A stretch of DNA of 21,240 nt from the IMG/VR virus record IMGVR_UViG_2744054964_000005, one strand, 5' to 3'. This document shows, in pieces, positions 1 through 13,948 of this stretch (position 1 is the stretch's first letter; each line of letters begins with the position of its first letter). A model generated the notes under the pieces. It was not told where the DNA came from. It was given only the letters and a program-made list of their open reading frames with translations, and searched no databases. This DNA is from a virus. Lineage: Duplodnaviria; Heunggongvirae; Uroviricota; Caudoviricetes. The position numbers were made by a program, and so were the translations under genes.

Positions 1-996
1 TTATGGACGCATTATGGACATTCCTGACACCGGGTTAAGAGTCACAGCATCTTGTAAGAAATCCGGTGCAAAGTGTGCGTAGGTCATAGTTTGCTGAATG
101 TTAGAATGACCCAGGATGCGCTGCAATGTGATTATGTTACCTCCATTCATTATAAAATGTGTGGCAAATGTATGCCTCAAAACATGTACTGCTTGTCCGT
201 CAGGTAAATCGGGTTTTACTTCCCTGAGAGCGTTACGCACTTTGTAGTAACTGGCATTAAAAAGCCTGCCTGAATTTTTGGTCTTGATCCGTTTAATCAG
301 GTCCTGCGAAACGGGAATTGTCCTGCGTTTTCCGTTTTTAGTTTTCATAAACGTAACCATCTGGTTAATGATGTGTTCAGCTTTTAAATTAGACACTTCA
401 CTCCAGCGTCCACCAGTAGAAAGGCAGACCAGAGTTGCATTTAATTCATCACCATCAAGCATGGATAACAGCCGCGTAATCTCTTCACTGGACAAAAAAG
501 CCATTTCCGTAACAGCTTCACGTAACCGTTTAATCTCACGGAACGGGTTGTGAGAGTGGTATTCACCGGCGTCAATTAACTTGGTGAACATCCCACTCAT
601 TATTGCCAGATGTCGATTTACGCTGGCTGGTTTTAGACCATCGTTCATCATTACAACGCGATAATCAGTTATCGTTTTCTTTGTTAGCTGGTCAGCTCTG
701 GACACTCCCATTTCTGCAAATTTGGCGATTATTGTCGTTAAACGCCCCCGTTCAATATCTCCACGCTCATGTGATTTTCCGTGATATATCCACCATCTGC
801 CTAACAACTCTGTAAGAGTTCGGCGGTCGGCTGGTTTCTCCAACCACTCTTTGTTGTGGTAGTTAACCAGTACATGACGTTCGAATGCTTGAGCTTCACC
901 TTTAGTTTTAAATTTCCGCCTGATACGTTTTCCATCTGCACCCTGCGGTCTGACGTCCACTTCATAACGACCATCATCGAGCTTTTTAATAGACAT
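1..996 (-). CDS. int: Tyrosine-type site-specific integrase (P2 Int-like), complete; stop codon at 1..3
   Basis: 331-aa ORF with C-terminal catalytic-region motifs (HVLRHTFATHF ... LGHSNIQQTMTYAHF, catalytic Tyr). ATG at 994-996 is preceded on the minus strand by GGAGG with a 5-nt spacer. Position is left of the repressor, as in P2. Confidence 0.9.
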   Translation of the reverse strand: MSIKKLDDGRYEVDVRPQGADGKRIRRKFKTKGEAQAFERHVLVNYHNKEWLEKPADRRTLTELLGRWWIYHGKSHERGDIERGRLTTIIAKFAEMGVSRADQLTKKTITDYRVVMMNDGLKPASVNRHLAIMSGMFTKLIDAGEYHSHNPFREIKRLREAVTEMAFLSSEEITRLLSMLDGDELNATLVCLSTGGRWSEVSNLKAEHIINQMVTFMKTKNGKRRTIPVSQDLIKRIKTKNSGRLFNASYYKVRNALREVKPDLPDGQAVHVLRHTFATHFIMNGGNIITLQRILGHSNIQQTMTYAHFAPDFLQDAVTLNPVSGMSIMRP

Positions 997-1089
997 AAAG
1001 CCCTCCGATGACGCTGTTTACTTCTACTACTTGAAAATTAATGCAATTTTCTTTCGTACATTTACTACACACATATGCTGAATAAATCG

Positions 1090-1389
1090 TCAGCCAGTCT
1101 TCTGGTCTGAGTGGTGCAAGGTTGTTGAGTCTTGCCCAATGTGTGCGAGAGCCGGGGCTATTTGTCCAGCTGCTGGATCTGTTTCATCAAACATGAACCA
1201 GTCACGATACTTGCGAAAGCGTGGATGCTTAAACAGCTTCATACCTGCTTCCATAGGCATTTTTGATTTTCCTGATTCATATCCATGATATGTGTAGTAA
1301 TTAATTCCAATTAATTCAGCAAGTTCCTTAGTTTTAAGGCGTTCGGATTCACGGATGAGCTTTAGTTTCTCACTTTGTTCACTTGACAT
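1090..1389 (-). CDS. C: Immunity repressor, P2 C-like (HTH, 99 aa from the ATG at 1389; the ORF track extends it to a TTG at 1407)
   Basis: Small HTH protein (LAELIGINYYTYHGYESG) transcribed divergently from the early operon and upstream of int on the same strand. The forward CAT at 1387-1389 gives a 99-aa product, which is the P2 C length as I remember it. Confidence 0.75.
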   Translation of the reverse strand: MSSEQSEKLKLIRESERLKTKELAELIGINYYTYHGYESGKSKMPMEAGMKLFKHPRFRKYRDWFMFDETDPAAGQIAPALAHIGQDSTTLHHSDQKTG

Positions 1390-1482
1390 AATTTTGCTAA
1401 TCTCCAATTATATTGTTACTTGGCAATTTGCGATTCACTCAAAAAGGCTCTAGATGGCTCCAGTTGGTGAATCGCAAATCTT
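1390..1482. promoter_or_regulatory. Divergent early promoter/operator region (Pc leftward, Pe rightward) with a 13-bp inverted repeat
   Basis: ATTTGCGATTCAC at about 1426..1438 and its reverse complement GTGAATCGCAAAT at 1467..1479. A minus-strand TATAAT (forward ATTATA, 1407..1412) sits just upstream of the C start. The region lies between the divergent repressor and cox genes. Confidence 0.5.
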
Positions 1483-1854
1483 ATGGAGGATAGCAAAGTG
1501 ACGACAAATGTAGAAATTTCTTGTCCAACTAGCGATGAGGCAAGTTTCGAAAATGAAGCCAAACGTAAAAGCATTCAGATTTCAGAGCGCCCATCTGATT
1601 TGCTGTCGAAAGAAGGTTTTGCTCTTTACATCGGTAAGACACCACGCGCGGTGGCTGAAATGGCTAAAGCAGGCAAGCTGCCAGCCTTCTACATGACAGA
1701 CCCATTAAAACCAAGAGGGAAAGCTGAATTATGGATTAATCGCCGTGAGTGGGACAAGTACGCAGCCCAACTGGTTGATGAAGCTCCGACAGAATGGCAT
1801 GACTGGAAAAATCGCATTAGTTACAGCAAATCAAGACATGGCCGTGCGGCTTAA
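1483..1854 (+). CDS. cox: Cox-like excisionase / early transcriptional regulator (start ambiguous: ATG 1483 or GTG 1498)
   Basis: First gene of the rightward early operon, opposite the repressor. Contains a Cox-like segment (GKLPAFYMTDP). GTG at 1498 has a GGAGGA Shine-Dalgarno 7 nt upstream; ATG at 1483 has none. The product is longer than P2 Cox (91 aa from memory). Confidence 0.6.
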   Translation: MEDSKVTTNVEISCPTSDEASFENEAKRKSIQISERPSDLLSKEGFALYIGKTPRAVAEMAKAGKLPAFYMTDPLKPRGKAELWINRREWDKYAAQLVDEAPTEWHDWKNRISYSKSRHGRAA

Positions 1855-1864
1855 GGTGGAAAGG

Positions 1865-2035
1865 ATGAACGAGCCTCGTTGTATTGCTCAGTTATTGCGT
1901 AACGAAAGCCCCAGGGCGATTGACTTCACCATCACCCACGGTAAGGGGCGTAAGGGAATCATTATCCGCACCAAAAAACAGAGTCCGTTAAAAAAGGCTC
2001 TGACCTTTCTGAAAAGCCGGAGGGTATGGAAATGA
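1865..2035 (+). CDS. Small early-operon protein (P2 orf78 position); start trimmed from the ORF-track 1745 to the ATG at 1865 after the cox stop
   Basis: ATG at 1865 follows the cox stop (TAA 1852-1854) and is preceded by AAGGTGGAAAGG. Its stop overlaps the B start (ATGA at 2032-2035). Confidence 0.4.
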   Translation: MNEPRCIAQLLRNESPRAIDFTITHGKGRKGIIIRTKKQSPLKKALTFLKSRRVWK

Positions 2036-2532
2036 CAGTGATGACGCTCAATCTCGTTGAAAAACAGCCAGCAGCTATGCGCCGGATAATTGGCAAGCAT
2101 CTTGCCGTCCCTCGCTGGCAGGAGACATGTGATTATTATAATCAGATGATGGAGCGCGAACGGCTAACGGTTTGCTTTCATGCACAGTTAAAACAGCGTC
2201 ACGCAACGATGCGTTTTGAAGAAATGAACGACGTCGAACGTGAACGACTGGTTTGTGCAATTGATGAATTGCGTGGCGCATTCTCAAAACGCCGTCAGGT
2301 CGGCGCAAGTGAGTATGCATATATTAGTTTTTTAACAGTCAGTCAGCGTCGTACTTTATTTATGCATGCGGGATTGACAGAAAAAGAATTCAATCAGCCG
2401 TACTGGCGAATTAATGAAGAATCATGTTACTGGCGTGATGCTTTATTCCGTGCATTACGTGAATTATTCAGTCTGTTTGAGTATGCACCGACAATTCTGA
2501 CGTCGGTAAAACCAGAGCAATATCTGCATTAA
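2032..2532 (+). CDS. B: Replication protein B-like (P2 gpB family); 166 aa from the ATG at 2032 (ORF track starts at 2026)
   Basis: Position between cox and the small early ORFs. GGAGGG at 2019-2024 gives a good 7-nt spacer to the ATG at 2032 and an implausible 1-nt spacer to 2026. The resulting 166 aa matches my memory of P2 B. Confidence 0.65.
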   Translation: MTVMTLNLVEKQPAAMRRIIGKHLAVPRWQETCDYYNQMMERERLTVCFHAQLKQRHATMRFEEMNDVERERLVCAIDELRGAFSKRRQVGASEYAYISFLTVSQRRTLFMHAGLTEKEFNQPYWRINEESCYWRDALFRALRELFSLFEYAPTILTSVKPEQYLH

Positions 2533-2595
2533 ATAATTAACCAGAGTTTTTAACGCACTTAATCGTGCGGGGCTTCTTTTTGCCTGGAGAAAGTC

Positions 2596-2820
2596 ATGCA
2601 TACAGTTTCTGAAAATCAGTGCGGTAAATACGCATTACTGCTGCAACAGGCCAGAACCGAAGCACAGGCCGACGCTGCGACGCGCTTTTCTTCTCATCTT
2701 GACGCCATGATTCGCCACATCACAAAGGCGGAGTTATCCCGCGTGGAGATAGTTGAGCTGCTCAGTCAGGAGTCGGAAAAATTTCACAATATCGGATTGT
2801 CTCGCGGGGAGGTGCTTTGA
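2596..2820 (+). CDS. Small early protein (P2 orf80 position), hypothetical
   Basis: 74-aa ORF with GGAGA Shine-Dalgarno; its stop overlaps the next start (TGATG at 2817). Confidence 0.55.
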
Positions 2821-3122
2821 TGTCCTGTTCTCATTCAGTTGTATTACTGAATAACGCCTTAAAAATCGCCGTTATGGAAAATGGCGATTTGTCTCTTATT
2901 CAACTTCGTCTTGATAAAGAAAAACGCGACATAACTGAATCTGTTATCGCGATTTATCAGAATGAATTAAACCTCCTGTCTGATGTGATCAATTTACTTG
3001 TTAAACGCGCTGTATTCCACAAGCAAATTTCCTCCGTGGATGAACTGACAAAATTAACGACAGAACTCGCCAGTTATTGCGCTGATGAATTTAAGAAGCT
3101 GAACGACAAAAGGAGCTGGTAA
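2817..3122 (+). CDS. Small early protein (P2 orf81 position), hypothetical
   Basis: 101-aa ORF with GGAGG Shine-Dalgarno, translationally coupled to its neighbours. Confidence 0.55.
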
Positions 3123-3346: not shown

Positions 3347-3618
3347 GTATTCGTATTGAAATTGGCGAACGTTATGTCGTTACCAGTGACAGCTTTCAGT
3401 TTATTCTCCACGAGAAAAAGAGAGCGGAAAGCGGTAAAAACGCCGGTCAGGAATGGCTGGCGGTGGTTGGTTATTACCCGAAATTAGGCCAGCTCGTTTC
3501 CGGCCTGATGCATCACGATATTCTGACCGGAAGCGCAAAATCTTTTGCTGATTTAAACGCGCAGGTTGAGCAACTCAGCAAGCGTTGTTCAGAGGCTTTT
3601 GGCTCATATGGCCGTTAA
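3343..3618 (+). CDS. Small early protein (P2 orf83 position), hypothetical; overlaps the start of gene A
   Basis: 91-aa ORF with GGAGAA Shine-Dalgarno, directly upstream of gene A. Confidence 0.55.
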   Translation: MSIRIEIGERYVVTSDSFQFILHEKKRAESGKNAGQEWLAVVGYYPKLGQLVSGLMHHDILTGSAKSFADLNAQVEQLSKRCSEAFGSYGR

Positions 3619-5893
3619 AGCCTCCGGGCGTTTTGTCCCTCCGTCAGCATTTACCGCAGGCACCAGTAAGGCGTTTACCGGTGCTTATGCATGGAACGCG
3701 CCACGCGAGGCTGTCGGGCGCGAAAGACCTCTTACACGTGACGAGATGCGTCAGGTGCAAGGTGTTTTATCCACGATTAACCGCCTGCCTTACTTTTTGC
3801 GCTCGCTGTTTACTTCACGCTATGACTACATCCGGCGCAATAAAAGCCCGGTGCACGGGTTTTATTTCCTCACATCTACTTTTCAGCGTCGTTTATGGCC
3901 GCGCATTGTGCGTGTGAATCAGCGCCATGAAATGAACACCGACGCGTCGTTGCTGTTTCTGGCAGAGCGCGACCAGTATGCGCGCTTGCCGGGGATGAAT
4001 GACAAGGAGCTGAAAAAGTTTGCCGCCCGTATCTCATCGCAGCTTTTCATGATGTATGAGGAACTCTGCGATGCATGGGTTGATGCGCATGGTGAAAAAG
4101 AATCGCTGTTTACGGATGAGGCGCAGGCTCACCTGTATGGTCATGTTGCTGGCGCTGCACGTGCTTTCAATATTTCCCCGCTCTACTGGAAAAAATACCG
4201 TAAAGGACAGATGACCACGAGGCAGGCATATTCTGCCATTGCCCGCCTGTTTAACGATGAGTGGTGGACTCATCAGCTTAAAGGCCAGCGTATGCGCTGG
4301 CATGAGGCGTTACTGATTGCTGTCGGGGAGGTCAATAAAGACCGTTCTCCTTATGCCAGTAAACATGCCATTCGTGATGTGCGTGCGCGCCGCCAGGCAA
4401 ATCTGGAATTTCTTAAATCGTGTGACCTTGAAAACAAGGAAACCGGCGAGCGCATCGACCTTATCAGTAAGGTGATGGGCAGTATTTCTAATCCTGAAAT
4501 TCGCCGGATGGAGCTGATGAACACCATTGCCGGTATTGAGCGTTACGCCGCCGCAGAGGGTGATGTGGGGATGTTTATCACGCTGACCGCGCCGTCAAAG
4601 TATCACCCGACACGTCAGGTCGGAAAAGGCGAAAGTAAAACCGTTCAGCTTAATCACGGCTGGAACGATGAGGCATTTAATCCAAAGGATGCGCAGCGTT
4701 ATCTCTGCCGTATCTGGAGCCTGATGCGCACGGCATTCAAGGATAATGATTTACAGGTCTACGGTTTGCGTGTCGTCGAGCCACACCACGACGGAACGCC
4801 GCACTGGCATATGATGCTTTTTTGTAATTCACGCCAGCGTAACCAGATTATCGAAATCATGCGTCGCTATGCGCTCAAAGAGGATGGCGACGAAAGAGGA
4901 GCCGCGCGAAACCGTTTTCAGGCAAAACACCTTAACCGGGGCGGTGCTGCGGGATATATCGCGAAATACATTTCAAAAAACATCGACGGCTATGCACTGG
5001 ATGGTCAGCTCGATAACGACACCGGCAGGCCGCTGAAAGACACTGCAGCGGCTGTTACCGCATGGGCGTCAACGTGGCGCATCCCGCAATTTAAAACGGT
5101 TGGCCTGCCGACAATGGGGGCTTACCGTGAACTACGCAAATTGCCGCGCGGCGTCAGCATTGCTGATGAGTTTGACGAGCGCGTCGAGGCTGCACGCGCC
5201 GCCGCAGACAGTGGTGATTTTGCGTTGTATATCAGCGCGCAGGGTGGGGCAAATGTCCCGCGCGATTGTCAGACTGTCAGAGTCGCCCGTAGCCCGTCGG
5301 ATGAAGTTAACGAGTACGAGGAAGAAGTCGAGAGAGTGGTCGGCATTTACGCGCCGCATCTCGGCGCGCGTCATATTCATATCACCAGAACGACGGACTG
5401 GCGCATTGTGCCGAAAGTTCCGGTCGTTGAGCCTTTGACTTTAAAAAGCGGCATCGCCGCGCCTCGGAGTCCTGTCAATAACTGTGGAAAGCTCACCGGT
5501 GGTGATACTTCGTTACCGGCTCCCACACCTTCTGAGCACGCCGCAGCAGTGCTTAATCTGGTTGATGACGGTGTTATTGAATGGAATGAACCGGAGGTCG
5601 TGAGGGCGCTCAGGGGCGCATTAAAACACGACCTGCGAACGCCAAACCGTCAGCAAAGAAACGGAAGCCCGTTAAAACCACATGAAATTGCACCATCGGC
5701 CAGACTGACCCGGTCGGAAAGAATGCAAATTACCCGTATCCGCGTTGACCTTGCTCAGAACGGTATCAGGCCGCAGCGATGGGAGCTTGAGGCGCTGGCG
5801 CGTGGCGCGACCATAAATTATGGCGGGGAAAAAGTCACGTATCCGGTCACTGATGAGTGGCCGGGATTCTCAACAGTAATGGAGTGGACATAA
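3608..5893 (+). CDS. A: Rolling-circle replication initiator, P2 gpA family (761 aa from the ATG at 3608; the ORF track begins at a TTG at 3566)
   Basis: Metal-binding HxH-type motif (EPHHDGTPHWHMMLF) and a Tyr-containing motif (GYIAKYISK) typical of rolling-circle Rep proteins. The length from ATG 3608 equals the P2 A length as I remember it. Confidence 0.9.
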   Translation: MAVKASGRFVPPSAFTAGTSKAFTGAYAWNAPREAVGRERPLTRDEMRQVQGVLSTINRLPYFLRSLFTSRYDYIRRNKSPVHGFYFLTSTFQRRLWPRIVRVNQRHEMNTDASLLFLAERDQYARLPGMNDKELKKFAARISSQLFMMYEELCDAWVDAHGEKESLFTDEAQAHLYGHVAGAARAFNISPLYWKKYRKGQMTTRQAYSAIARLFNDEWWTHQLKGQRMRWHEALLIAVGEVNKDRSPYASKHAIRDVRARRQANLEFLKSCDLENKETGERIDLISKVMGSISNPEIRRMELMNTIAGIERYAAAEGDVGMFITLTAPSKYHPTRQVGKGESKTVQLNHGWNDEAFNPKDAQRYLCRIWSLMRTAFKDNDLQVYGLRVVEPHHDGTPHWHMMLFCNSRQRNQIIEIMRRYALKEDGDERGAARNRFQAKHLNRGGAAGYIAKYISKNIDGYALDGQLDNDTGRPLKDTAAAVTAWASTWRIPQFKTVGLPTMGAYRELRKLPRGVSIADEFDERVEAARAAADSGDFALYISAQGGANVPRDCQTVRVARSPSDEVNEYEEEVERVVGIYAPHLGARHIHITRTTDWRIVPKVPVVEPLTLKSGIAAPRSPVNNCGKLTGGDTSLPAPTPSEHAAAVLNLVDDGVIEWNEPEVVRALRGALKHDLRTPNRQQRNGSPLKPHEIAPSARLTRSERMQITRIRVDLAQNGIRPQRWELEALARGATINYGGEKVTYPVTDEWPGFSTVMEWT

Positions 5894-6060
5894 TGGCAAA
5901 AATTCACGCAATATTAGATAATTTCGTACTGTATATATTTAGTGTTATTGAAAAATCTCGACAGAAAGAGCTTTCTGTATTTAATCGTTGCTTGCAGTTT
6001 GGTATTGTTTACCATGATTGTTTGTTAAGTGCTTTAAAGGTGAGGGATGAGCGAGTTTGA
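5893..6060 (+). CDS. Hypothetical 55-aa protein, first ORF of the AT-rich cargo locus (ORF track starts at 5857)
   Basis: ATG overlaps the A stop (TAATG, 5891-5895) and is preceded by GGAGTGG. The ORF is AT-rich and overlaps the start of the 612-aa ORF by 14 nt. Confidence 0.4.
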   Translation: MAKIHAILDNFVLYIFSVIEKSRQKELSVFNRCLQFGIVYHDCLLSALKVRDERV

Positions 6061-7885
6061 TGTTTTTTCTATTTCAGTTGATGATTTTAAAAAAAGTGAA
6101 TACGCCAGTATATTATCATCGCCAAGAAGTTATTCTCATTTTGATATGGAGTCTTATTTTGTTCAGTTGCTGTCATCTTACAAGCAAAAAAACGATGTAA
6201 GTTCTTGGCGGCTTTGCTATTTATTACGTGCGTTGTTTAATTTTAAATTTTCTAGGTCTGGTGATATTATCGGTTTTGAGCCAAAAATCATTCTCTATCC
6301 TGAGAGGGGCTATAGGCCTTCAGATTATAAGGAGAGTTTTTCAACAATATTAACTTGCATTAAAGAAAACTCCGATAATCCTTATATTATATCTAGGGTG
6401 TGTGATGTTTTATGGATAAATAACCGTAAGGATATAGACTCTGCCAATAAAGCAATAGAGTCATATTCTCTAATGGTTAATGATGCTTGCGATACTTTAA
6501 TAGAAAAACAAGAGTCAGGTGATATCCATATTTTTGATGTTGTTGACTGCTTGGATAGAGGTATCGCAATATCGCGCATGCTTATTGGCAGGAAAAAACA
6601 ACTACAAGGGGGGATAGTTGATTCAACATTAAGGTTATATCATGTATTAATAGACTCTGGTATATTCGCCGGTGTATTAAGAGTTTCTGAAATTCTTTAT
6701 AAGAATAATTTATTGTGTCCATTGCAATTGGCTGAGAATGCAGAAAAGATAGCTGATGAGCATTGTGGAGCGTCTTATTTTGATGCAGTGAAAAAATTGT
6801 TTTATTTTGCGTCTGAATTATATGTTAAAAACGATATGGAAGAGCAAGGAAGACGGTGCAGAATTAAAGCGTCAGAAATAACATTGGCTCAATTTGAACA
6901 GTCTTCATCTTCAATATTGAAGGCTCATTGGTTAAGAGTTGCTCTTGGCGAATTTAGAGCAATTGGTGGAATGAATGAAGAAATTAAAAAGATTAGAGAG
7001 GAATTGAATTCTATTCGAGATCAAATCAATGATGAAATGCACTTCTTTGCAATACCAATGGATCTTAGTGATGTTATCGCTCAGAAAGAGCATGTTTATA
7101 ATCAATTGGATTTCTCAAGGGTAATTAAAACTTTAATTGCTAGATTTAAGATTGTAAGTGCCAGTGAAATTATGGAAAGAGCTCGTTCCGATGCTAAAAA
7201 ACATTTTTTTCTTAATATGAGTGAAACGGTTGTTTATGATGATAGAGGGCGCGTTGTAGCAAGTCGTTCACCTTTGGATCCTGCGGGGGATATAAGTTTA
7301 AATGATGCTTGTGCAAATTATTTAAGAACTAGTAACATTGAGCATCAGGTCTATGTTTGTGGTGAGTTTGAAGTCGTTAGGCAAAGTGTGTTGGCTAGGT
7401 ATTCATTAAATGAAAATACATTTGACCCAATCTCACAACAAAGTGCATTTGTTCCACCTGGGTATGCAGAAATATTTTCTTTGGGGTTTTATAAGCTTTG
7501 GCAGGGAGATTATGTGTCTGCGTGTTATTTGTTATTGCCGCAATTGGAGAATTCAATTAGATGGATTTTAGAATTAAGAAGAAAAGAAACAACGAAAATA
7601 GATGTGTCGCTTTTTGAGGAGGCTACTAGCCTATCTCAAATGCTTGCAAATTATAGGAGTGAAATGGAAGGTGTTTTTGATAGTGATCATGTATTGACTA
7701 TGGATTTATTGTTCAATATGAAAGGTGGTGCTGCAATTAGACACACGATGGCTCATGGCAGGTATACTGTAAATCATTGTTATCAACCAACTTCAGTTTT
7801 TGCCTGTGTCTTTATCTTTTATTTAACTTGTTTGCCTTTATTTAGTGTATGGGAAGATAAAGTTGAACCTTATCTGGCTGATTAA
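6047..7885 (+). CDS. Uncharacterised 612-aa cargo protein; candidate HEPN-like anti-phage defence/abortive-infection effector (not Old, not Tin)
   Basis: Long uninterrupted ORF in visibly AT-rich DNA with a GGTGAGGG Shine-Dalgarno. No Walker A (GxxxxGK[ST]) motif. C-terminal IRHTMAHG (R565-x4-H570, nt 7739..7756) fits the HEPN R-x4-6-H signature, followed by a hydrophobic stretch (SVFACVFIFYLTCLPLFSVW). It occupies the P2 orf91/tin/old position between A and cos. Confidence 0.85.
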   Translation: MSEFDVFSISVDDFKKSEYASILSSPRSYSHFDMESYFVQLLSSYKQKNDVSSWRLCYLLRALFNFKFSRSGDIIGFEPKIILYPERGYRPSDYKESFSTILTCIKENSDNPYIISRVCDVLWINNRKDIDSANKAIESYSLMVNDACDTLIEKQESGDIHIFDVVDCLDRGIAISRMLIGRKKQLQGGIVDSTLRLYHVLIDSGIFAGVLRVSEILYKNNLLCPLQLAENAEKIADEHCGASYFDAVKKLFYFASELYVKNDMEEQGRRCRIKASEITLAQFEQSSSSILKAHWLRVALGEFRAIGGMNEEIKKIREELNSIRDQINDEMHFFAIPMDLSDVIAQKEHVYNQLDFSRVIKTLIARFKIVSASEIMERARSDAKKHFFLNMSETVVYDDRGRVVASRSPLDPAGDISLNDACANYLRTSNIEHQVYVCGEFEVVRQSVLARYSLNENTFDPISQQSAFVPPGYAEIFSLGFYKLWQGDYVSACYLLLPQLENSIRWILELRRKETTKIDVSLFEEATSLSQMLANYRSEMEGVFDSDHVLTMDLLFNMKGGAAIRHTMAHGRYTVNHCYQPTSVFACVFIFYLTCLPLFSVWEDKVEPYLAD

Positions 7886-8047
7886 TGGAAGTTGATTTAG
7901 GTATTTTGGCATTTATCTTTCTGCGTGCAATATGTGCATGGTTTTGCATGTGCCGGAGTTGCATGTTCCGGCCGTGCGTCCGCCAGGACGGGCGTGGCTC
8001 AAAAGCGGTATTGCACCTGCATTAAAACCGCCCCACGAAGCGGGCGG

Positions 8048-8066
8048 GCGAGGCGGGGAAAGCACT
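8048..8066. other. cos site: 19-nt cohesive-end sequence GGCGAGGCGGGGAAAGCAC
   Basis: Exact match to the P2/P4 cohesive-end sequence as I remember it, located between the cargo locus and the portal gene Q, as expected for a P2 prophage. Confidence 0.55.
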
Positions 8067-8207
8067 GCGCGCTGGCGGTGGTGCTGATTTTATTTTTTCA
8101 GCGTCTGAGCGCGTCGTGACGGCGCTTAGTCTACCCGTTGTGGTGTTGGTGTGTCTGCGGGGTGTTTTGTGCGGTGGTGAGCGTGTGAGGGCGTGATGAC
8201 GGGATGT

Positions 8208-8229
8208 AAAAAAGCCGCCCGCAGGCGGC
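8208..8229 (-). terminator. Intrinsic terminator for the leftward P-Q transcript
   Basis: On the minus strand, GCCGCC-TGCG-GGCGGC is followed by TTTTTT, immediately after the Q stop codon (8235-8237). Confidence 0.5.
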
Positions 8230-8234
8230 GATGT

Positions 8235-9269
8235 TCAGCCGTTGTCAGTGTCCAGTGAGTAGTTTTTAAAGCGGATGACATCCTGACCGAGCCAGCCGTT
8301 TATTTCCCGAATCCTGTCCTGTAACGGGATAAGCTCATTGCGGACAAAGACCTTTGCCACTTTCTCAATATCTCCCAGCGACCCGACATTCTCCGGCTTG
8401 CCGCCCATCAACTGAAAGGGGATGCGGTGCGCGTCCAGCAGGTCAGCGGCGCTGGCTTTTTTGATATTAAAAAAATCGTCTTTCGTCGCCACTTCACTGA
8501 GCGGGATAATTTTAATGCCGTCGGCTTTTCCCTGCGGGGCGTAGAGAAACAGATTTTTAAAGTTGTTGCGGCCTTTCGACTTAACCATGTTTTCGCGAAG
8601 CATTTCGATATCGTTGCGATCCTGCACGGCATCGGTGACGTACATGATGTATCCGGCATGTGCGCCGTTTTCGTAATACTTGCGGCGGAACAGCGTGGCC
8701 GATTCATTCAGCCAGGCAGAGTTAAGGGCGCTGAGATATTCCGGCAGGCCGTACAGCTCCTGATTAATATCCGGCTCCAGCAGGTGAAACACGGAACCGG
8801 GCGCGAAGGCTGTCGGCTCGTTGAAGGACGGCACCCACCAGTAAACATCCTCTTCCACACCACGGCGGGTATATTTTGCCGGTGAGGTTTCCAGTCTGAT
8901 GACTTTACCGGTAGTGCTGTAACGCTTTTCCAGAAACGCATTACCGAACACCAGAAAATCCAGCACAAAGCGGCTGAAATCCTGCTGGGACAGCCACGGG
9001 TGCGGGATAAACGTTGAAGCCAGAATATTACGTTTGACGTAAATCGGTGAGCTGTGATGCACGGCAGCACGCAGGCTTTTTGCCAGACCGGTAAAGCTGA
9101 TTGGTGGCTCATACCATCTGCCGTTACTGATGCATTCGACGTAATCCAGAATGTCACGGCGGTCGAGTACCGGCACCGGCTCACCAAAGGTGAATGCCTC
9201 CATTTTCGGGGCGCTGGCAGTCATTTTTTTTGCCGCAGGTTGCGGTGTTTTCCCTTTTTTCTTGCTCAT
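8235..9269 (-). CDS. Q: Portal protein (P2 gpQ)
   Basis: 344-aa ORF, the same length as P2 Q from memory, next to cos. Its start overlaps the P stop (ATGA). Confidence 0.9.
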   Translation of the reverse strand: MSKKKGKTPQPAAKKMTASAPKMEAFTFGEPVPVLDRRDILDYVECISNGRWYEPPISFTGLAKSLRAAVHHSSPIYVKRNILASTFIPHPWLSQQDFSRFVLDFLVFGNAFLEKRYSTTGKVIRLETSPAKYTRRGVEEDVYWWVPSFNEPTAFAPGSVFHLLEPDINQELYGLPEYLSALNSAWLNESATLFRRKYYENGAHAGYIMYVTDAVQDRNDIEMLRENMVKSKGRNNFKNLFLYAPQGKADGIKIIPLSEVATKDDFFNIKKASAADLLDAHRIPFQLMGGKPENVGSLGDIEKVAKVFVRNELIPLQDRIREINGWLGQDVIRFKNYSLDTDNG

Positions 9270-11041
9270 CAGTAAAACTCCAGAATGGTGGATGTCAGCG
9301 GGGTGCTGATACCGGCGGTGAGTGGCTCATTTAACAGGGCGTGCATGGTCGCCCAGGCGAGGTCGGCGTGGCTGGCTTCCTCGCTGCGGCTGGCCTCATA
9401 GGTGGCGCTGCGTCCGCTGCTGGTCATGGTCTTGCGGATAGCCATAAACGAGCTGGTGATGTCGGTGGCGCTGACGTCATATTCCAGACAGCCACGACGG
9501 ATAACGTCTTTTGCCTTGAGCACCATTGCGGTTTTCATTTCCGGTGTGTAGCGGATATCGCGCGCGGCGGGATAGAACGAGCGCACGAGCTGGAACACGC
9601 CGACACCGAGGCCGGTGGCATCAATACCGATGTATTCGACGTTATATTTTTCGGTGAGTTTGCGGATGGATTCAGCCTGGGTGGCAAAGTCCATGCCTTT
9701 CCACTGGTGACGCTCAAGTATTCTGAATTTGCCTCCGGCCACTACCGGCGGTGCCAGTACCACGCATCCGGCGCTGTCGCCACGGTGTGACGGGTCGTAA
9801 CCAATCCAGACCGGGCGGGAGCCGAACGGATTCGCGGCAAACGGCGCATAGTCTTCCCATTCTTCCAGCGTGTCGACCATGCAGCGTTGCAGCTCCTCGA
9901 ACGGGAACACCGACGCCTTGTCGTCAACAAATTCACACATGAACAGGTTTTTAAAATCGTCGGCGCTGTTTTCGCGTTTAAGCTGCTCAATGTCGAACAG
10001 CGTGCAGCCACCTTTCAGGGCGTCCTCAATGGTGACAATCTGCCGCCACTGACCGTCCGCACAGAGAAGCCCACCGGCAAGGGCGTTATGACTGACGTCG
10101 ATTTCCACGCGTTCGGCGGCGCTGGCGCGTCCCCGGTTGAACAGTTCACCCGACCAGAACGGGTAGGCGTCGTGCGCCAGCGTGGACGGGGTGGAGAAAT
10201 AGGTCGAGCGCAGGTGACTCTGTGAGGCCATACCTGATGCCACCTTACGCAGTACCTGAAAATTCGGTATCCAGAAAATCTCGTCGACGTACAGGTCGCC
10301 GTTATGGCTCTGCGCGGTGTTGGAGTTGGTGCCGAGAAAAATCAGTTTTGCGCCGTTATTACCCAGGACAATCGGGTCACCGGTCAGGTCAACGTCAACC
10401 AGCCGGGCAAAGGCGATGATGTATTCGCGGAACACATACGCCTGCGTTTTACTGGCCGACAGAAAAATCTGGTTATGACCGGTTTTCAGGGCGCGCAGCA
10501 GCGCCTCGCGGGAAAAATAAAACGTCGCGCCAATCTGGCGGGATTTCAGGATATCGCGGATGCGGTGCTCAAGCCCGGCGCGATACCAGTGCAACTGATA
10601 TTCGAAAGACTGCTCAAAGAAAATCTGCTCCAGCTTTTCGATAGCCTCGTCACTGAAAAAATTCTTTTTCGGTTTGCGCCGCCCGCCTTTGTTGCGGTTA
10701 GCGATGTTCGGATTAAGGTCTGCCTCGTTGCCGGTCTGGCTGTAGCGGTTTACCCGTGCCAGTCGTTCAATCTGGCGTCCGAGCAGGTCAATTTCCTTAA
10801 AGTCACCGCCGGTTTTCTGCGGTTTGATGATGAGCTGGGTCAGCCGCGCTTCCAGACTCATTTCGACACGGCTGATGGGGGCAACGCTGTCCCAGCCGTC
10901 GCGCTGTTTCCAGCTCTGCACCGTCGGGCGTTTCATCTGCAACATGGCGGCAATCTGCGGCACGGAAAACCCCTGCCAGTACAGCAGCGCCGCCTGACGA
11001 CGCGGGTCGTGTAAAAGAGTGGTGTCTGTGGTGATGGTCAT
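9269..11041 (-). CDS. P: Terminase large (ATPase) subunit (P2 gpP); start at the ATG at 11041 rather than the ORF-track 11071
   Basis: About 590 aa, transcribed divergently from the capsid operon. The ATG at 11039-11041 has GAGG about 6 nt upstream on the minus strand. Confidence 0.9.
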   Translation of the reverse strand: MTITTDTTLLHDPRRQAALLYWQGFSVPQIAAMLQMKRPTVQSWKQRDGWDSVAPISRVEMSLEARLTQLIIKPQKTGGDFKEIDLLGRQIERLARVNRYSQTGNEADLNPNIANRNKGGRRKPKKNFFSDEAIEKLEQIFFEQSFEYQLHWYRAGLEHRIRDILKSRQIGATFYFSREALLRALKTGHNQIFLSASKTQAYVFREYIIAFARLVDVDLTGDPIVLGNNGAKLIFLGTNSNTAQSHNGDLYVDEIFWIPNFQVLRKVASGMASQSHLRSTYFSTPSTLAHDAYPFWSGELFNRGRASAAERVEIDVSHNALAGGLLCADGQWRQIVTIEDALKGGCTLFDIEQLKRENSADDFKNLFMCEFVDDKASVFPFEELQRCMVDTLEEWEDYAPFAANPFGSRPVWIGYDPSHRGDSAGCVVLAPPVVAGGKFRILERHQWKGMDFATQAESIRKLTEKYNVEYIGIDATGLGVGVFQLVRSFYPAARDIRYTPEMKTAMVLKAKDVIRRGCLEYDVSATDITSSFMAIRKTMTSSGRSATYEASRSEEASHADLAWATMHALLNEPLTAGISTPLTSTILEFY

Positions 11042-11214
11042 GAATACCTCGCCGTGATGAATACACGGCAAGGCTACTGAGTCGCGCCCCGCGATTCGCT
11101 AAGGTGCTGTTGTGTCAGTGATAAGCCATCCGGGACTGATGGCGGAGGATGCGCATCGTCGGGAAACTGATGCCGACATGTGACTCCTCTAATCACTATT
11201 CAGGACTCCTGACA
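11042..11214. promoter_or_regulatory. Divergent late promoter region (P2 PP/PO equivalents, expected Ogr-type activator dependent)
   Basis: Intergenic region between the divergently transcribed P and O, as in P2. I could not find a clean TGT-N12-ACA activator site by eye. Confidence 0.45.
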
Positions 11215-12069
11215 ATGGCAAAAAAAGTCTCAAAATTCTTTCGTATCGGCGTTGAGGGTGACACCTGTGACGGGCGTGTCATCAGTGCGCAGGATATTCA
11301 GGAAATGGCCGAAACCTTTGACCCGCGTGTCTACGGTTGCCGCATTAACCTGGAACATCTGCGCGGCATCCTGCCTGACGGTATTTTTAAACGTTATGGC
11401 GATGTGGCCGAACTGAAGGCCGAAAAGATTGATGACGATTCGGCGCTGAAAGGCAAATGGGCGCTGTTTGCGAAAATCACCCCGACCGATGACCTTATCG
11501 CGATGAACAAGGCCGCGCAGAAGGTCTACACCTCAATGGAAATTCAGCCGAACTTTGCCAACACCGGCAAATGTTATCTGGTGGGTCTGGCCGTCACCGA
11601 TGACCCGGCAAGCCTCGGCACGGAATACCTGGAATTCTGCCGCACGGCAAAACACAACCCTCTGAACCGCTTCAAATTAAGCCCTGAAAACCTGATTTCA
11701 GTGGCAACGCCTGTTGAGCTGGAATTTGAAGACCTGCCTGAAACCGTGTTCACCGCCCTGACCGAAAAGGTGAAATCCATTTTTGGCCGCAAACAGGCCA
11801 GCGATGACGCTCGTCTGAATGACGTGCATGAAGCGGTGACCGCTGTTGCTGAACATGTGCAGGAAAAGCTGAGCGCCACTGAGCAGCGACTCGCTGAGAT
11901 GGAAACCGCCTTTTCCGCACTTAAGCAGGAGGTGACTGACAGGGCGGATGAAACCAGCCAGGCATTCAGCCGCCTGAAAAACAGTCTCGACCACACCGAA
12001 AGTCTGACCCAGCAGCGCCGCAGCAAGGCCACCGGCGGTGGCGGTGACGCCCTGATGACGAACTGCTGA
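11215..12069 (+). CDS. O: Capsid scaffolding protein (P2 gpO); start at the ATG at 11215 rather than the ORF-track 11149
   Basis: 284 aa from ATG 11215, which is the P2 O length from memory. The acidic, coiled-coil-rich C-terminal half is typical of scaffold proteins. Confidence 0.85.
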   Translation: MAKKVSKFFRIGVEGDTCDGRVISAQDIQEMAETFDPRVYGCRINLEHLRGILPDGIFKRYGDVAELKAEKIDDDSALKGKWALFAKITPTDDLIAMNKAAQKVYTSMEIQPNFANTGKCYLVGLAVTDDPASLGTEYLEFCRTAKHNPLNRFKLSPENLISVATPVELEFEDLPETVFTALTEKVKSIFGRKQASDDARLNDVHEAVTAVAEHVQEKLSATEQRLAEMETAFSALKQEVTDRADETSQAFSRLKNSLDHTESLTQQRRSKATGGGGDALMTNC

Positions 12070-12127
12070 CCGGCGTCAGCCAGTCCGGGAAAACCTTCAC
12101 GATTAACCCTTAATTTCAGGAAAAACT

Positions 12128-13201
12128 ATGCGCCAGGAAACTCGCTTTAAATTTAATGCCTACCTGTCCCGTGTTGCCGAACTGAACGGCATCGACGCCG
12201 GTGATGTGTCGAAAAAATTCACCGTTGAACCGTCGGTCACCCAGACTCTGATGAACACCATGCAGGAGTCCTCTGACTTTCTGACCCGCATCAACATTGT
12301 GCCGGTCAGCGAAATGAAAGGGGAAAAAATTGGTATTGGTGTCACCGGCTCCATCGCCAGCACCACAGACACCGCCGGTGGCACCGAGCGTCAGCCGAAG
12401 GACTTCTCGAAGCTGGCGTCAAACAAGTACGAATGCGACCAGATTAACTTCGATTTTTATATCCGCTACAAAACGCTTGACCTGTGGGCGCGTTATCAGG
12501 ATTTCCAGCTCCGTGTCCGTAACGCCATTATCAAACGCCAGTCCCTTGATTTAATCATGGCCGGTTTTAACGGCGTGAGGCGTGCCGAAACCTCTGACCG
12601 CAGCAGTAACCAGATGCTGCAGGATGTGGCGGTCGGCTGGCTGCAGAAATACCGCAATGAAGCCCCGGCGCGCGTGATGAGCAAGGTTACTGACGAGGAA
12701 GGTCACACGACCTCTGAGGTCATCCGCGTGGGTAAGGGCGGTGATTATGCCAGCCTCGATGCACTGGTGATGGATGCGACCAACAACCTGATTGAGCCGT
12801 GGTATCAGGAAGACCCTGACCTTGTGGTGATTGTGGGGCGTCAGCTACTGGCGGACAAGTATTTCCCCATCGTCAACAAGGAGCAGGACAACAGCGAGAT
12901 GCTGGCCGCTGACGTCATCATCAGCCAGAAACGCATCGGTAACCTGCCGGCGGTACGCGTCCCGTACTTCCCGGCGGATGCGATGCTCATCACGAAGCTG
13001 GAAAACCTGTCCATCTACTACATGGATGACAGCCATCGCCGCGTGATTGTGGAAAACCCGAAACTCGACCGCGTGGAGAACTACGAGTCAATGAACATTG
13101 ATTACGTGGTGGAAGACTACGCCGCCGGTTGTCTGGTGGAAAAAATTAAGGTCGGTGACTTCTCCACACCGACTAAAGTGACCGCAGAGCCGGGAGCGTA
13201 A
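12128..13201 (+). CDS. N: Major capsid protein (P2 gpN)
   Basis: 357 aa, AGGA Shine-Dalgarno, directly after the scaffold gene. Confidence 0.9.
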   Translation: MRQETRFKFNAYLSRVAELNGIDAGDVSKKFTVEPSVTQTLMNTMQESSDFLTRINIVPVSEMKGEKIGIGVTGSIASTTDTAGGTERQPKDFSKLASNKYECDQINFDFYIRYKTLDLWARYQDFQLRVRNAIIKRQSLDLIMAGFNGVRRAETSDRSSNQMLQDVAVGWLQKYRNEAPARVMSKVTDEEGHTTSEVIRVGKGGDYASLDALVMDATNNLIEPWYQEDPDLVVIVGRQLLADKYFPIVNKEQDNSEMLAADVIISQKRIGNLPAVRVPYFPADAMLITKLENLSIYYMDDSHRRVIVENPKLDRVENYESMNIDYVVEDYAAGCLVEKIKVGDFSTPTKVTAEPGA

Positions 13202-13204
13202 CCG

Positions 13205-13948
13205 ATGACGAGTCCTGCACAGCGCCACATGATGCGGGTCTCGGCAGCGATGACCGCGCAGCGGGACGCCGCCCCGCTGCGACATGCAACTGTCTATGAG
13301 CAGATGCTGGTCAAGCTGGCCGCAGACCAGCGCACACTGAAAGCGATTTATTCAAAAGAGCTGAAGGCCGCGAAAAAACGCGAACTGCTGCCGTTCTGGT
13401 TGCCGTGGGTGAACGGCGTGCTGGAGCAGGGCAAAGGTGCACAGGATGACATTCTGATGACGGTCATGCTGTGGCGTCTGGATACCGGCGATATTGCCGG
13501 TGCGCTGGAGATTGCCCGTTATGCCCTGAAGTACGGTCTGACCATGCCGGGTAAACACCGCCGTACCCCGCCGTACATGTTCACCGAGGAGGTAGCGCTT
13601 GCGGCCATGCGCGCCCACGCTGCCGGTGAATCTGTGGATACCCGCCTGCTGACGGAAACCCTTGAACTGACCGCCACGGCAGACATGCCTGATGAAGTGC
13701 GCGCAAAGCTGCACAAAATCACCGGTCTGTTTCTGCGTGACGGTGATGATGCCGCCGGTGCGCTGGCTCACCTGCAACGTGCGACACAGCTCGACTGTCA
13801 GGCAGGCGTCAAAAAAGAGATTGAACGACTGGAGCGGGAGCTGAAACCGAAGCCGGAGCCGCAGCCAAAAGCGGCCACCCGCGCCCCGCGTAAGACCCGG
13901 AGTGCGACACCGGCAAAACGTGGACGCCCGAAAAAGAAAGCCAGTTAA
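13205..13948 (+). CDS. M: Terminase small (endonuclease) subunit (P2 gpM)
   Basis: 247 aa with a basic Lys/Arg/Pro-rich C-terminus; GGGAG Shine-Dalgarno; follows N. Confidence 0.85.
   Translation: MTSPAQRHMMRVSAAMTAQRDAAPLRHATVYEQMLVKLAADQRTLKAIYSKELKAAKKRELLPFWLPWVNGVLEQGKGAQDDILMTVMLWRLDTGDIAGALEIARYALKYGLTMPGKHRRTPPYMFTEEVALAAMRAHAAGESVDTRLLTETLELTATADMPDEVRAKLHKITGLFLRDGDDAAGALAHLQRATQLDCQAGVKKEIERLERELKPKPEPQPKAATRAPRKTRSATPAKRGRPKKKAS

Follow-up and report, generated by a model that had tools for sequence, protein, structure and literature searches.

Several validated defence systems carry a HEPN effector and a non-catalytic accessory domain in one polypeptide. These include HEC-08 (a DUF3644 HEPN domain with Zn fingers), DS-11 (CBS and HEPN) and DS-38/PD-T7-4 (HEPN and a Zn finger), for which mutation of the R-x4-6-H residues abolishes defence. 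The HEPN RNases of known structure are regulated by cyclic oligoadenylate/CARF, by antitoxins or by AMPylation. The HEPN superfamily also includes DUF4209 (the C6orf70/ERMARD family), which was placed in it by Anantharaman et al. 2013 (PMC3710099). The same study lists C6orf70/DUF4209 among the families that conserve the motif and are predicted to be active, and describes bacterial members as being fused to TPRs and found in restriction-modification (R-M) related operons. In the literature searched, no biochemically characterised DUF4209/C6orf70 member was found. A further point of comparison is the PADLOC candidate PDC-S39, defined from genes embedded in BREX, DISARM or type I R-M systems, and one of 145 bioinformatic candidates that its authors explicitly describe as untested (Payne et al. 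2024, 10.1101/2024.01.29.577857).

P2-like prophages constitute another source of defence genes. The slot between gpA and cos/portal, which holds tin and old in P2, is a recognised cargo hotspot. The Old protein belongs to the ATPase-TOPRIM nucleases; the target of Tin is the single-strand-binding protein of T-even phages. In this gpA-to-portal hotspot, 21% of the cargo families match DefenseFinder, and the same hotspot also holds non-defence cargo, such as a CDT toxin.

The gene analyzed here, ORF612 (6047..7885, plus strand), encodes a protein of 612 aa from an ATG start, composed of DUF7380 and DUF4209 (HEPN) in a fixed architecture and matching the PDC-S39 candidate. It lies in a viral window of 21,240 nucleotides (Caudoviricetes; IMG/VR record IMGVR_UViG_2744054964_000005), the whole stretch of DNA examined; the chromosome of E. 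coli 19SZHZ869Rt (NZ_CP080085.1) contains this window with 100% identity. The left flank is the P2 replication endonuclease gene A (3608..5893, plus strand), as given by its ORF and by the RefSeq annotation of the identical record. On the right, the 19-nt P2 cos cohesive-end sequence matches exactly at 8047..8065 (plus strand; 19/19 nt, with 0 matches in 100 shuffles), and is followed by the portal protein gene Q (8235..9269, minus strand; ORF and RefSeq annotation). As the RefSeq neighbors in 19SZHZ869Rt are a P2-type replication endonuclease (gene A) on the left and portal and terminase genes on the right, and as the cos match is exact, ORF612 occupies the gpA-to-cos/portal slot. A sequence-only reading of this stretch had placed the gene between gene A and cos, in the P2 tin/old hotspot, and had contrasted an AT-rich cargo with GC-rich phage flanks; both statements are borne out.

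The cargo cassette spans 5894..7933, with no strand assigned, and its GC content is 0.343 (0.345 for ORF612 itself), whereas gene A stands at 0.537 and the remainder of the window at 0.539. ORF612 is the sole long ORF of this AT-rich block, to the right of which homology to other P2-like phages picks up again at about position 7934. Its ATG is preceded by the Shine-Dalgarno-like sequence AAAGGTGAGGG; the Shine-Dalgarno-like AAGGTGAGGG at 6037..6046 (plus strand) abuts the ATG, and AM157366.1 has an annotated ribosome-binding site at this position. ORF612 is a variable, compositionally foreign cargo of the P2 tin/old hotspot, acquired horizontally. Relatives with 88, 77, 52, 35, and 32.5% identity are found in the same post-gpA slot of P2-like prophages; the isolated phage vB_EcoM-569R9 is among the carriers, and one decayed prophage retains its relative intact. 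The cargo is present in 21 of the 5426 complete E. coli genomes and P2-like flanks in 2157 of them, from which it follows that ORF612 is dispensable for P2.

With P2 Old and Tin, the ORF612 protein shares this slot in a P2-like prophage and the presumed role, which is the exclusion of other phages from the lysogen. The likeness does not extend to the proteins themselves, as had been supposed from the letters: PADLOC returned no match other than PDC-S39, hence none to Old or Tin, and the protein contains no Walker A motif.

Profile searches assign nearly the whole protein to known families. Pfam PF24098 (DUF7380) matches residues 8-184 (6068..6598, plus strand) with an E-value of 6.6e-25 and 88.4 bits, against a gathering cutoff of 27. 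In an alignment of 161 sequences, R117, D120, W123, Y140, and R171 of this domain are near-invariant. It is followed by a TPR/SNAP-like alpha-helical repeat (about residues 150-330; 6494..7036, plus strand), for which a role as a sensor or scaffold is proposed. It had been said that the N-terminal region holds no recognizable motif, a fair description, given that neither DUF7380 nor the helical repeat has an assigned role. PDC-S39 matches residues 8-599 over model positions 7-583 of 595 (E 7.2e-69), a second PDC-S39 model gives an E-value of 2.3e-68 with similar, near full-length coverage, and PHROG 5183, a full-length family without assigned function, scores 1087 bits. NCBIfam gave no match with the ORF612 protein.

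DUF4209 is reached through relatives. In a hmmscan of the window protein at E <= 1, DUF7380 is the only match, with no direct match to PF13910 (DUF4209). Among 70 family members scanned, DUF7380 is found in 70/70 and a C-terminal PF13910 in 64/70, and full-length homologues at 51% identity bear PF13910. Published HHblits results for WP_001288417.1, a protein with 2/612 residues different from the window protein (99.7% identity), place DUF4209 at residues 500-593, with a probability of 99.5% and an E-value of 2.9e-19. Relatives and profile-profile comparison show the homology of the window protein to DUF4209, its own branch having diverged enough to miss the HMM. Related loci were sought with a 12-sequence alignment of homologues, and a profile-based homologue search gave the same 12 proteins. 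An exhaustive profile search yielded 5869 clusters at 50% identity, including 2074 at E <= 1e-30; nearly all are of 590-650 residues and align end to end. This DUF7380-DUF4209 family is mostly non-phage, and is spread over many bacterial phyla and archaea.

The C-terminal domain (about residues 470-612; 7454..7882, plus strand) is very probably a HEPN domain of the DUF4209/C6orf70 family, in which R565 and H570 likely form the catalytic pair. The defining features of HEPN domains (PMC3710099) are an R-x4-6-H motif, a polar residue (N, D, or H) directly after the arginine, and, in helix 2, E-x3-[KR] with a second conserved acidic residue; all of them are found here. The segment IRHTMAHG corresponds to residues 564-571, so the R565/H570 numbering is correct, and the catalytic motif R565-H-T-M-A-H570 (7739..7756, plus strand) is followed by the invariant G571. 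By itself, the R-x(4-6)-H motif is no better than chance in this protein: four matches are found where 2.26 are expected, and four or more occur in 18% of shuffles. Only the match at 565 is conserved family-wide. In the 161 sequences, whose median identity is 21%, R565 is conserved at 99%, H570 at 100%, and G571 at 100%, and at position 566 the residue is N in 96 of them, H in 64 (as in the window protein), and D in one. The helix-2 motif P498-Q-L-E501-N-S-I-R505 (7538..7561, plus strand) is equally constrained (E501 100%, R505 99%, P498 99%, Q499 96%), and E501 and R505 fall inside a helix of the model (489-510).

The structure models point in the same direction. The domain adopts a four-helix up-down bundle; helices 2 and 3 are separated by an insert, and the motif sits between helices 3 and 4. 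It aligns with soluble HEPN structures over 100-126 residues. In a Foldseek search of the PDB with the C-terminal model, the best E-value is 0.47, with none <= 0.001; the matches of highest probability are nevertheless HEPN proteins, namely TM0613 (0.30) and Csm6' (0.28), their E-values not being significant. Searches of PDB sequences with phmmer and profile hmmsearch returned a chance bromodomain match and weak TPR matches, and no HEPN protein. Compared to Csm6, RnlA/LsoA, the HEPN-MNT toxins, and the HEPN domains of AbiA and sacsin, sequence identity is only 5-17%, and Foldseek similarity is not significant. The proposal of a C-terminal HEPN domain with R565/H570, originally made from one short motif, has thus gained the backing of conservation in 161 sequences and of structural alignment to HEPN proteins. 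It is very probable that the ORF612 protein is an RNA-cutting enzyme of the HEPN type.

Several features set this protein apart from the systems described above. With DUF4209/C6orf70 (ERMARD) it shares the R-[NH]-x-x-A-H-G and P-Q-x-E-x3-R motifs, but its branch misses the PF13910 HMM at E <= 1, and the eukaryotic members are built differently, with a predicted TM region and ER localization. HEC-08, DS-11, and DS-38/PD-T7-4 are likewise single chains in which an accessory domain without catalytic function accompanies a HEPN effector, whereas their HEPN families and accessory domains are different, and none of them is matched by the ORF612 protein in PADLOC. In ORF612, the HEPN domain is C-terminal and is preceded by some 470 residues made up of DUF7380 and TPR-like helices, a module that would take the place held in HEPN RNases of known structure by the regulators named above. 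The resemblance to PDC-S39 comprises the full-length profile match, the status of single-gene candidate, and, for part of the family, a location in or beside type I R-M operons; the window copy differs in being the cargo of a P2 prophage hotspot instead of lying inside an R-M system.

The genomic surroundings of the relatives are informative in this respect. A set of 33 diverse full-length loci was inspected, from Proteobacteria, Cyanobacteria, Firmicutes, Chloroflexi, Verrucomicrobia, Nitrospirae, Actinobacteria, and Methanosarcinales. The commonest neighbors belong to type I R-M, with 5-7 flanking ORFs for methylases, 3-4 for specificity subunits, and 2-3 for R subunits, in agreement with the 'guilt-by-embedding' origin of PDC-S39. 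Homologues are also carried by 27 plasmids, 15 of which are conjugative. Finally, Table S5 of DefensePredictor lists an ECOR protein, 99.7% identical to that of ORF612, as the product of a predicted novel defence gene, with a log-odds of 8.85. The hotspot, the PDC-S39 match, the R-M neighbors, and the DefensePredictor score together make the suggested anti-phage candidacy credible. ORF612 is a well-supported and already catalogued defence candidate.

The claim that this would be an undescribed system does not stand. The gene had been sequenced before, under the name ORF612, in P2-EC46 (AM157366.1, deposited in GenBank in 2006), and the product of that copy is 99.3-99.4% identical to the window protein. 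Its domains are in Pfam as DUF7380 and DUF4209, the HEPN nature of the latter was predicted in 2013 (Anantharaman et al.), and defence candidacy has been published twice, by PADLOC/Payne et al. in 2024 (PDC-S39) and by DefensePredictor in 2026 (Table S5); these three published resources are independent of one another. As a member of an extensive family that is on record as a defence candidate, ORF612 is a sound candidate and not a new discovery. The literature is otherwise sparse: no paper was found naming DUF7380 or P2-EC46, DUF4209 appears in one, and PDC-S39 is found in genome surveys only. The family is not covered in Rousset 2022, the iLund4u hotspot preprint, the NAR 2026 P2/P4 survey, or the NAR 2026 domain-centric study, and in the P2/P4 hotspot survey P4 cargo alone was tested. 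The protein is absent from the DefensePredictor table of 118 tested (cloned) units, and no experimental test of ORF612 was found in the literature searched, which did not extend to Brenes & Laub 2025 (ECOR prophage defences).

The value of this locus now lies in experiment rather than in annotation. If protection were shown, one more HEPN single-protein defence would be added to the repertoire of the P2 hotspot, and a PADLOC candidate family that covers the majority of bacterial phyla, as well as some archaea and numerous plasmids, would be validated. It would also offer the first functional handle on DUF4209, passed down to eukaryotes as ERMARD/C6orf70, and on the DUF7380 module.

Taken together, these data make it probable, to a modest degree, that ORF612 is a stand-alone, prophage-borne sensor-plus-RNase defence protein acting by abortive infection. 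The protein would be made by the P2-like lysogen and would exclude other phages. Its N-terminal DUF7380 and TPR-like repeat could constitute, in the same single chain, a sensing or regulatory module that restrains the HEPN RNase and lets it act only once a phage cue arrives. On infection, this sensor would release or assemble the HEPN site, the latter probably by homodimerization, by analogy with other HEPN RNases. The C-terminal DUF4209 domain, predicted to be a catalytically competent, metal-free HEPN ribonuclease, would then cut host and/or phage RNA, leading to translation arrest and an aborted infection. A more specific version, in which the DUF7380/TPR-like module of this anti-phage RNase binds a phage component directly, through the surface formed by the near-invariant R117, D120, W123, Y140, and R171, is possible but should be held only tentatively. 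Were it true, DUF7380-DUF4209 would represent a new and very widespread sensor-effector immune family, with about 5900 bacterial and archaeal clusters at 50% identity, and the HEPN domain of eukaryotic ERMARD/C6orf70 would have its prokaryotic ancestor there.

Among the other explanations to be weighed, the one that best withstands the data takes ORF612 as a non-defence prophage RNase or toxin serving P2 itself (by modulating host RNA, stabilizing the lysogen, or competing with the host), or as a lysogenic-conversion factor. The CDT toxin and similar cargo of the same hotspot give it some substance, as does the fact that fewer than half of the machine-predicted defence units have been validated. 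Against it stand a family of 5869 clusters that is mostly non-phage and occurs in many bacterial phyla and archaea, relatives repeatedly located beside or inside type I R-M operons, and a cargo that is dispensable for P2, judging from the genome counts given above. A non-defence role is unlikely.

The sensor-plus-RNase reading also presupposes a single gene, which is questioned by a 55-aa ORF in the AT-rich leader upstream (5893..6060, plus strand). This ORF, which would be translationally coupled to gene A, could encode an antitoxin or regulator restraining a HEPN toxin, in which case the locus would be a toxin-antitoxin-like system instead of a single-gene system. Its start overlaps the gene A stop (TAATG), its end overlaps ORF612 by 14 nt, it is annotated by RefSeq in the identical genome (NZ_CP080085.1), and a 42-nt deletion in the 88% clade is in frame and does not close it. 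In the 77% Citrobacter clade, however, it is interrupted by an in-frame stop beside an intact large gene, and no counterpart was found in the 52% and 35% P2-type loci. A Pfam search with it gave no match, and it is unannotated in the other E. coli genomes inspected, so that its status as a gene is doubtful. No conserved partner gene, small ones included, was found in the 33 distant loci, where no neighbor family recurs beyond a few, and the conserved upstream DNA blocks are equally compatible with a promoter or leader. The preferred reading of ORF612 is that of a single-gene module, and a two-gene system is very unlikely.

The earlier reading had also drawn attention to about 20 hydrophobic residues past the motif, as a possible membrane anchor. 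The stretch does exist: residues 583-601 are the sole hydrophobic segment of the protein, beginning about 12 residues past H570, with a Kyte-Doolittle value of 2.17 over these 19 residues, none of which is charged in this clade. A membrane-anchored HEPN protein, with this segment as a C-terminal transmembrane helix, would have precedents, given that membrane-associated HEPN proteins exist and that eukaryotic C6orf70 is predicted at the ER membrane. The segment belongs, however, to a packed and continuous 30-residue helix at 581-610 (7787..7876, plus strand; pLDDT about 89-96 in both models). It comes right after R-x4-H, which is the site of core helix 4 in every HEPN domain (PMC3710099), and is read as that helix in both models. 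It is also part of the domain that aligns with soluble HEPN structures, and without it the HEPN domain would be reduced to three helices and incomplete. In distant relatives, the equivalent segment contains two Arg, with a hydropathy of 1.2-1.4. The helix-4 position, the confidently modelled helix, and these arginines lean against a membrane anchor, which is considered unlikely on the basis of the models.

That the HEPN-like domain might be a non-catalytic binding module (of the MtlR or nucleotidyltransferase-associated type), making the protein an adaptor or regulator, is scarcely plausible, as non-catalytic HEPN families have lost R-x4-6-H and C6orf70/DUF4209 is classed with the motif-conserving, predicted active ones (Anantharaman et al., PMC3710099), while the R, the H, the polar residue after the R, and E-x3-R are all 96-100% conserved here.

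The N-terminal DUF7380 domain of ORF612 (window 6068..6598, + strand) has a polar residue set of its own, R117, D120, W123, Y140 and R171, and because these positions are 94-100% conserved family-wide, they suggest a putative binding or second catalytic site. Half-length relatives that lack this domain are found on 12 Klebsiella plasmids, many of them conjugative, as DUF4209-annotated proteins matching only ORF612 residues 288-603 (plasmid hits H49-H60; for example, NZ_CP132652.1 185176-186120).

Other relatives come with a neighboring gene. In three independent contigs, a gene with a SLATT_5 domain (L008 10028-10363, L009 8558-8893, and L011 2227-2562) is located 210 nt downstream of P0011, a distant ORF612 homologue with 22% identity, and this recurrent arrangement is a hint of a pairing between the HEPN protein and a membrane effector in parts of the family. 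A different companion of ORF612 homologues in other P2-type hotspots is a DUF2971 protein, detected at L005 7849-8760 and L006 8714-9532, both matching the PADLOC candidate PDC-S31 (E 7e-28 and 6e-33), and probably also at L015 9852-10763. In L005, the DUF2971 gene starts 7 nt past the stop codon of the ORF612 homologue. No DUF2971 companion is present in the window. DefensePredictor Table S6 lists a validated unit, DS-45, under the working id '2971', which may be related to this companion.

The L005 locus is a decayed P2-like prophage (4146-13628), in which gene A is split into three ORFs and the terminase is truncated. As its ORF612 homologue is intact, and an NsnA/GmrSD-like gene is also carried nearby (PADLOC NsnA E 3e-42), this locus suggests that the cargo is under selection after the death of the phage. 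A near-identical copy of ORF612 is found at 330536-332374 of the ECOR contig NZ_QOYF01000007.1, about 20 kb from DS-7, a validated DefensePredictor system consisting of a DUF2634 protein (310084-311190 of the same contig); both are possibly part of one P2-like prophage.

Directly upstream of ORF612, a 55-aa ORF (window 5893..6060, + strand) begins at the gene A stop codon (TAATG overlap, window 5893), and shares 14 nt with ORF612 at its 3' end. Only one RefSeq genome, that identical to the window, carries it as an annotated gene. The ORF is still open in the 88% clade, where a 42-nt deletion keeps the frame, is disrupted in the Citrobacter clade (77%), and no counterpart was found in relatives beyond the latter. 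Blocks of the DNA preceding ORF612 are kept in all three clades compared, and may correspond to a promoter or leader.

The early region of the window contains an integrase (1..996, - strand), a repressor-like ORF (1090..1407, - strand), and a cox-like ORF (1483..1854). Its GC content (0.40-0.47 over 1..3000) is lower than that of the late genes (0.53-0.62), which looks like the ordinary mosaicism of P2-like immunity regions.
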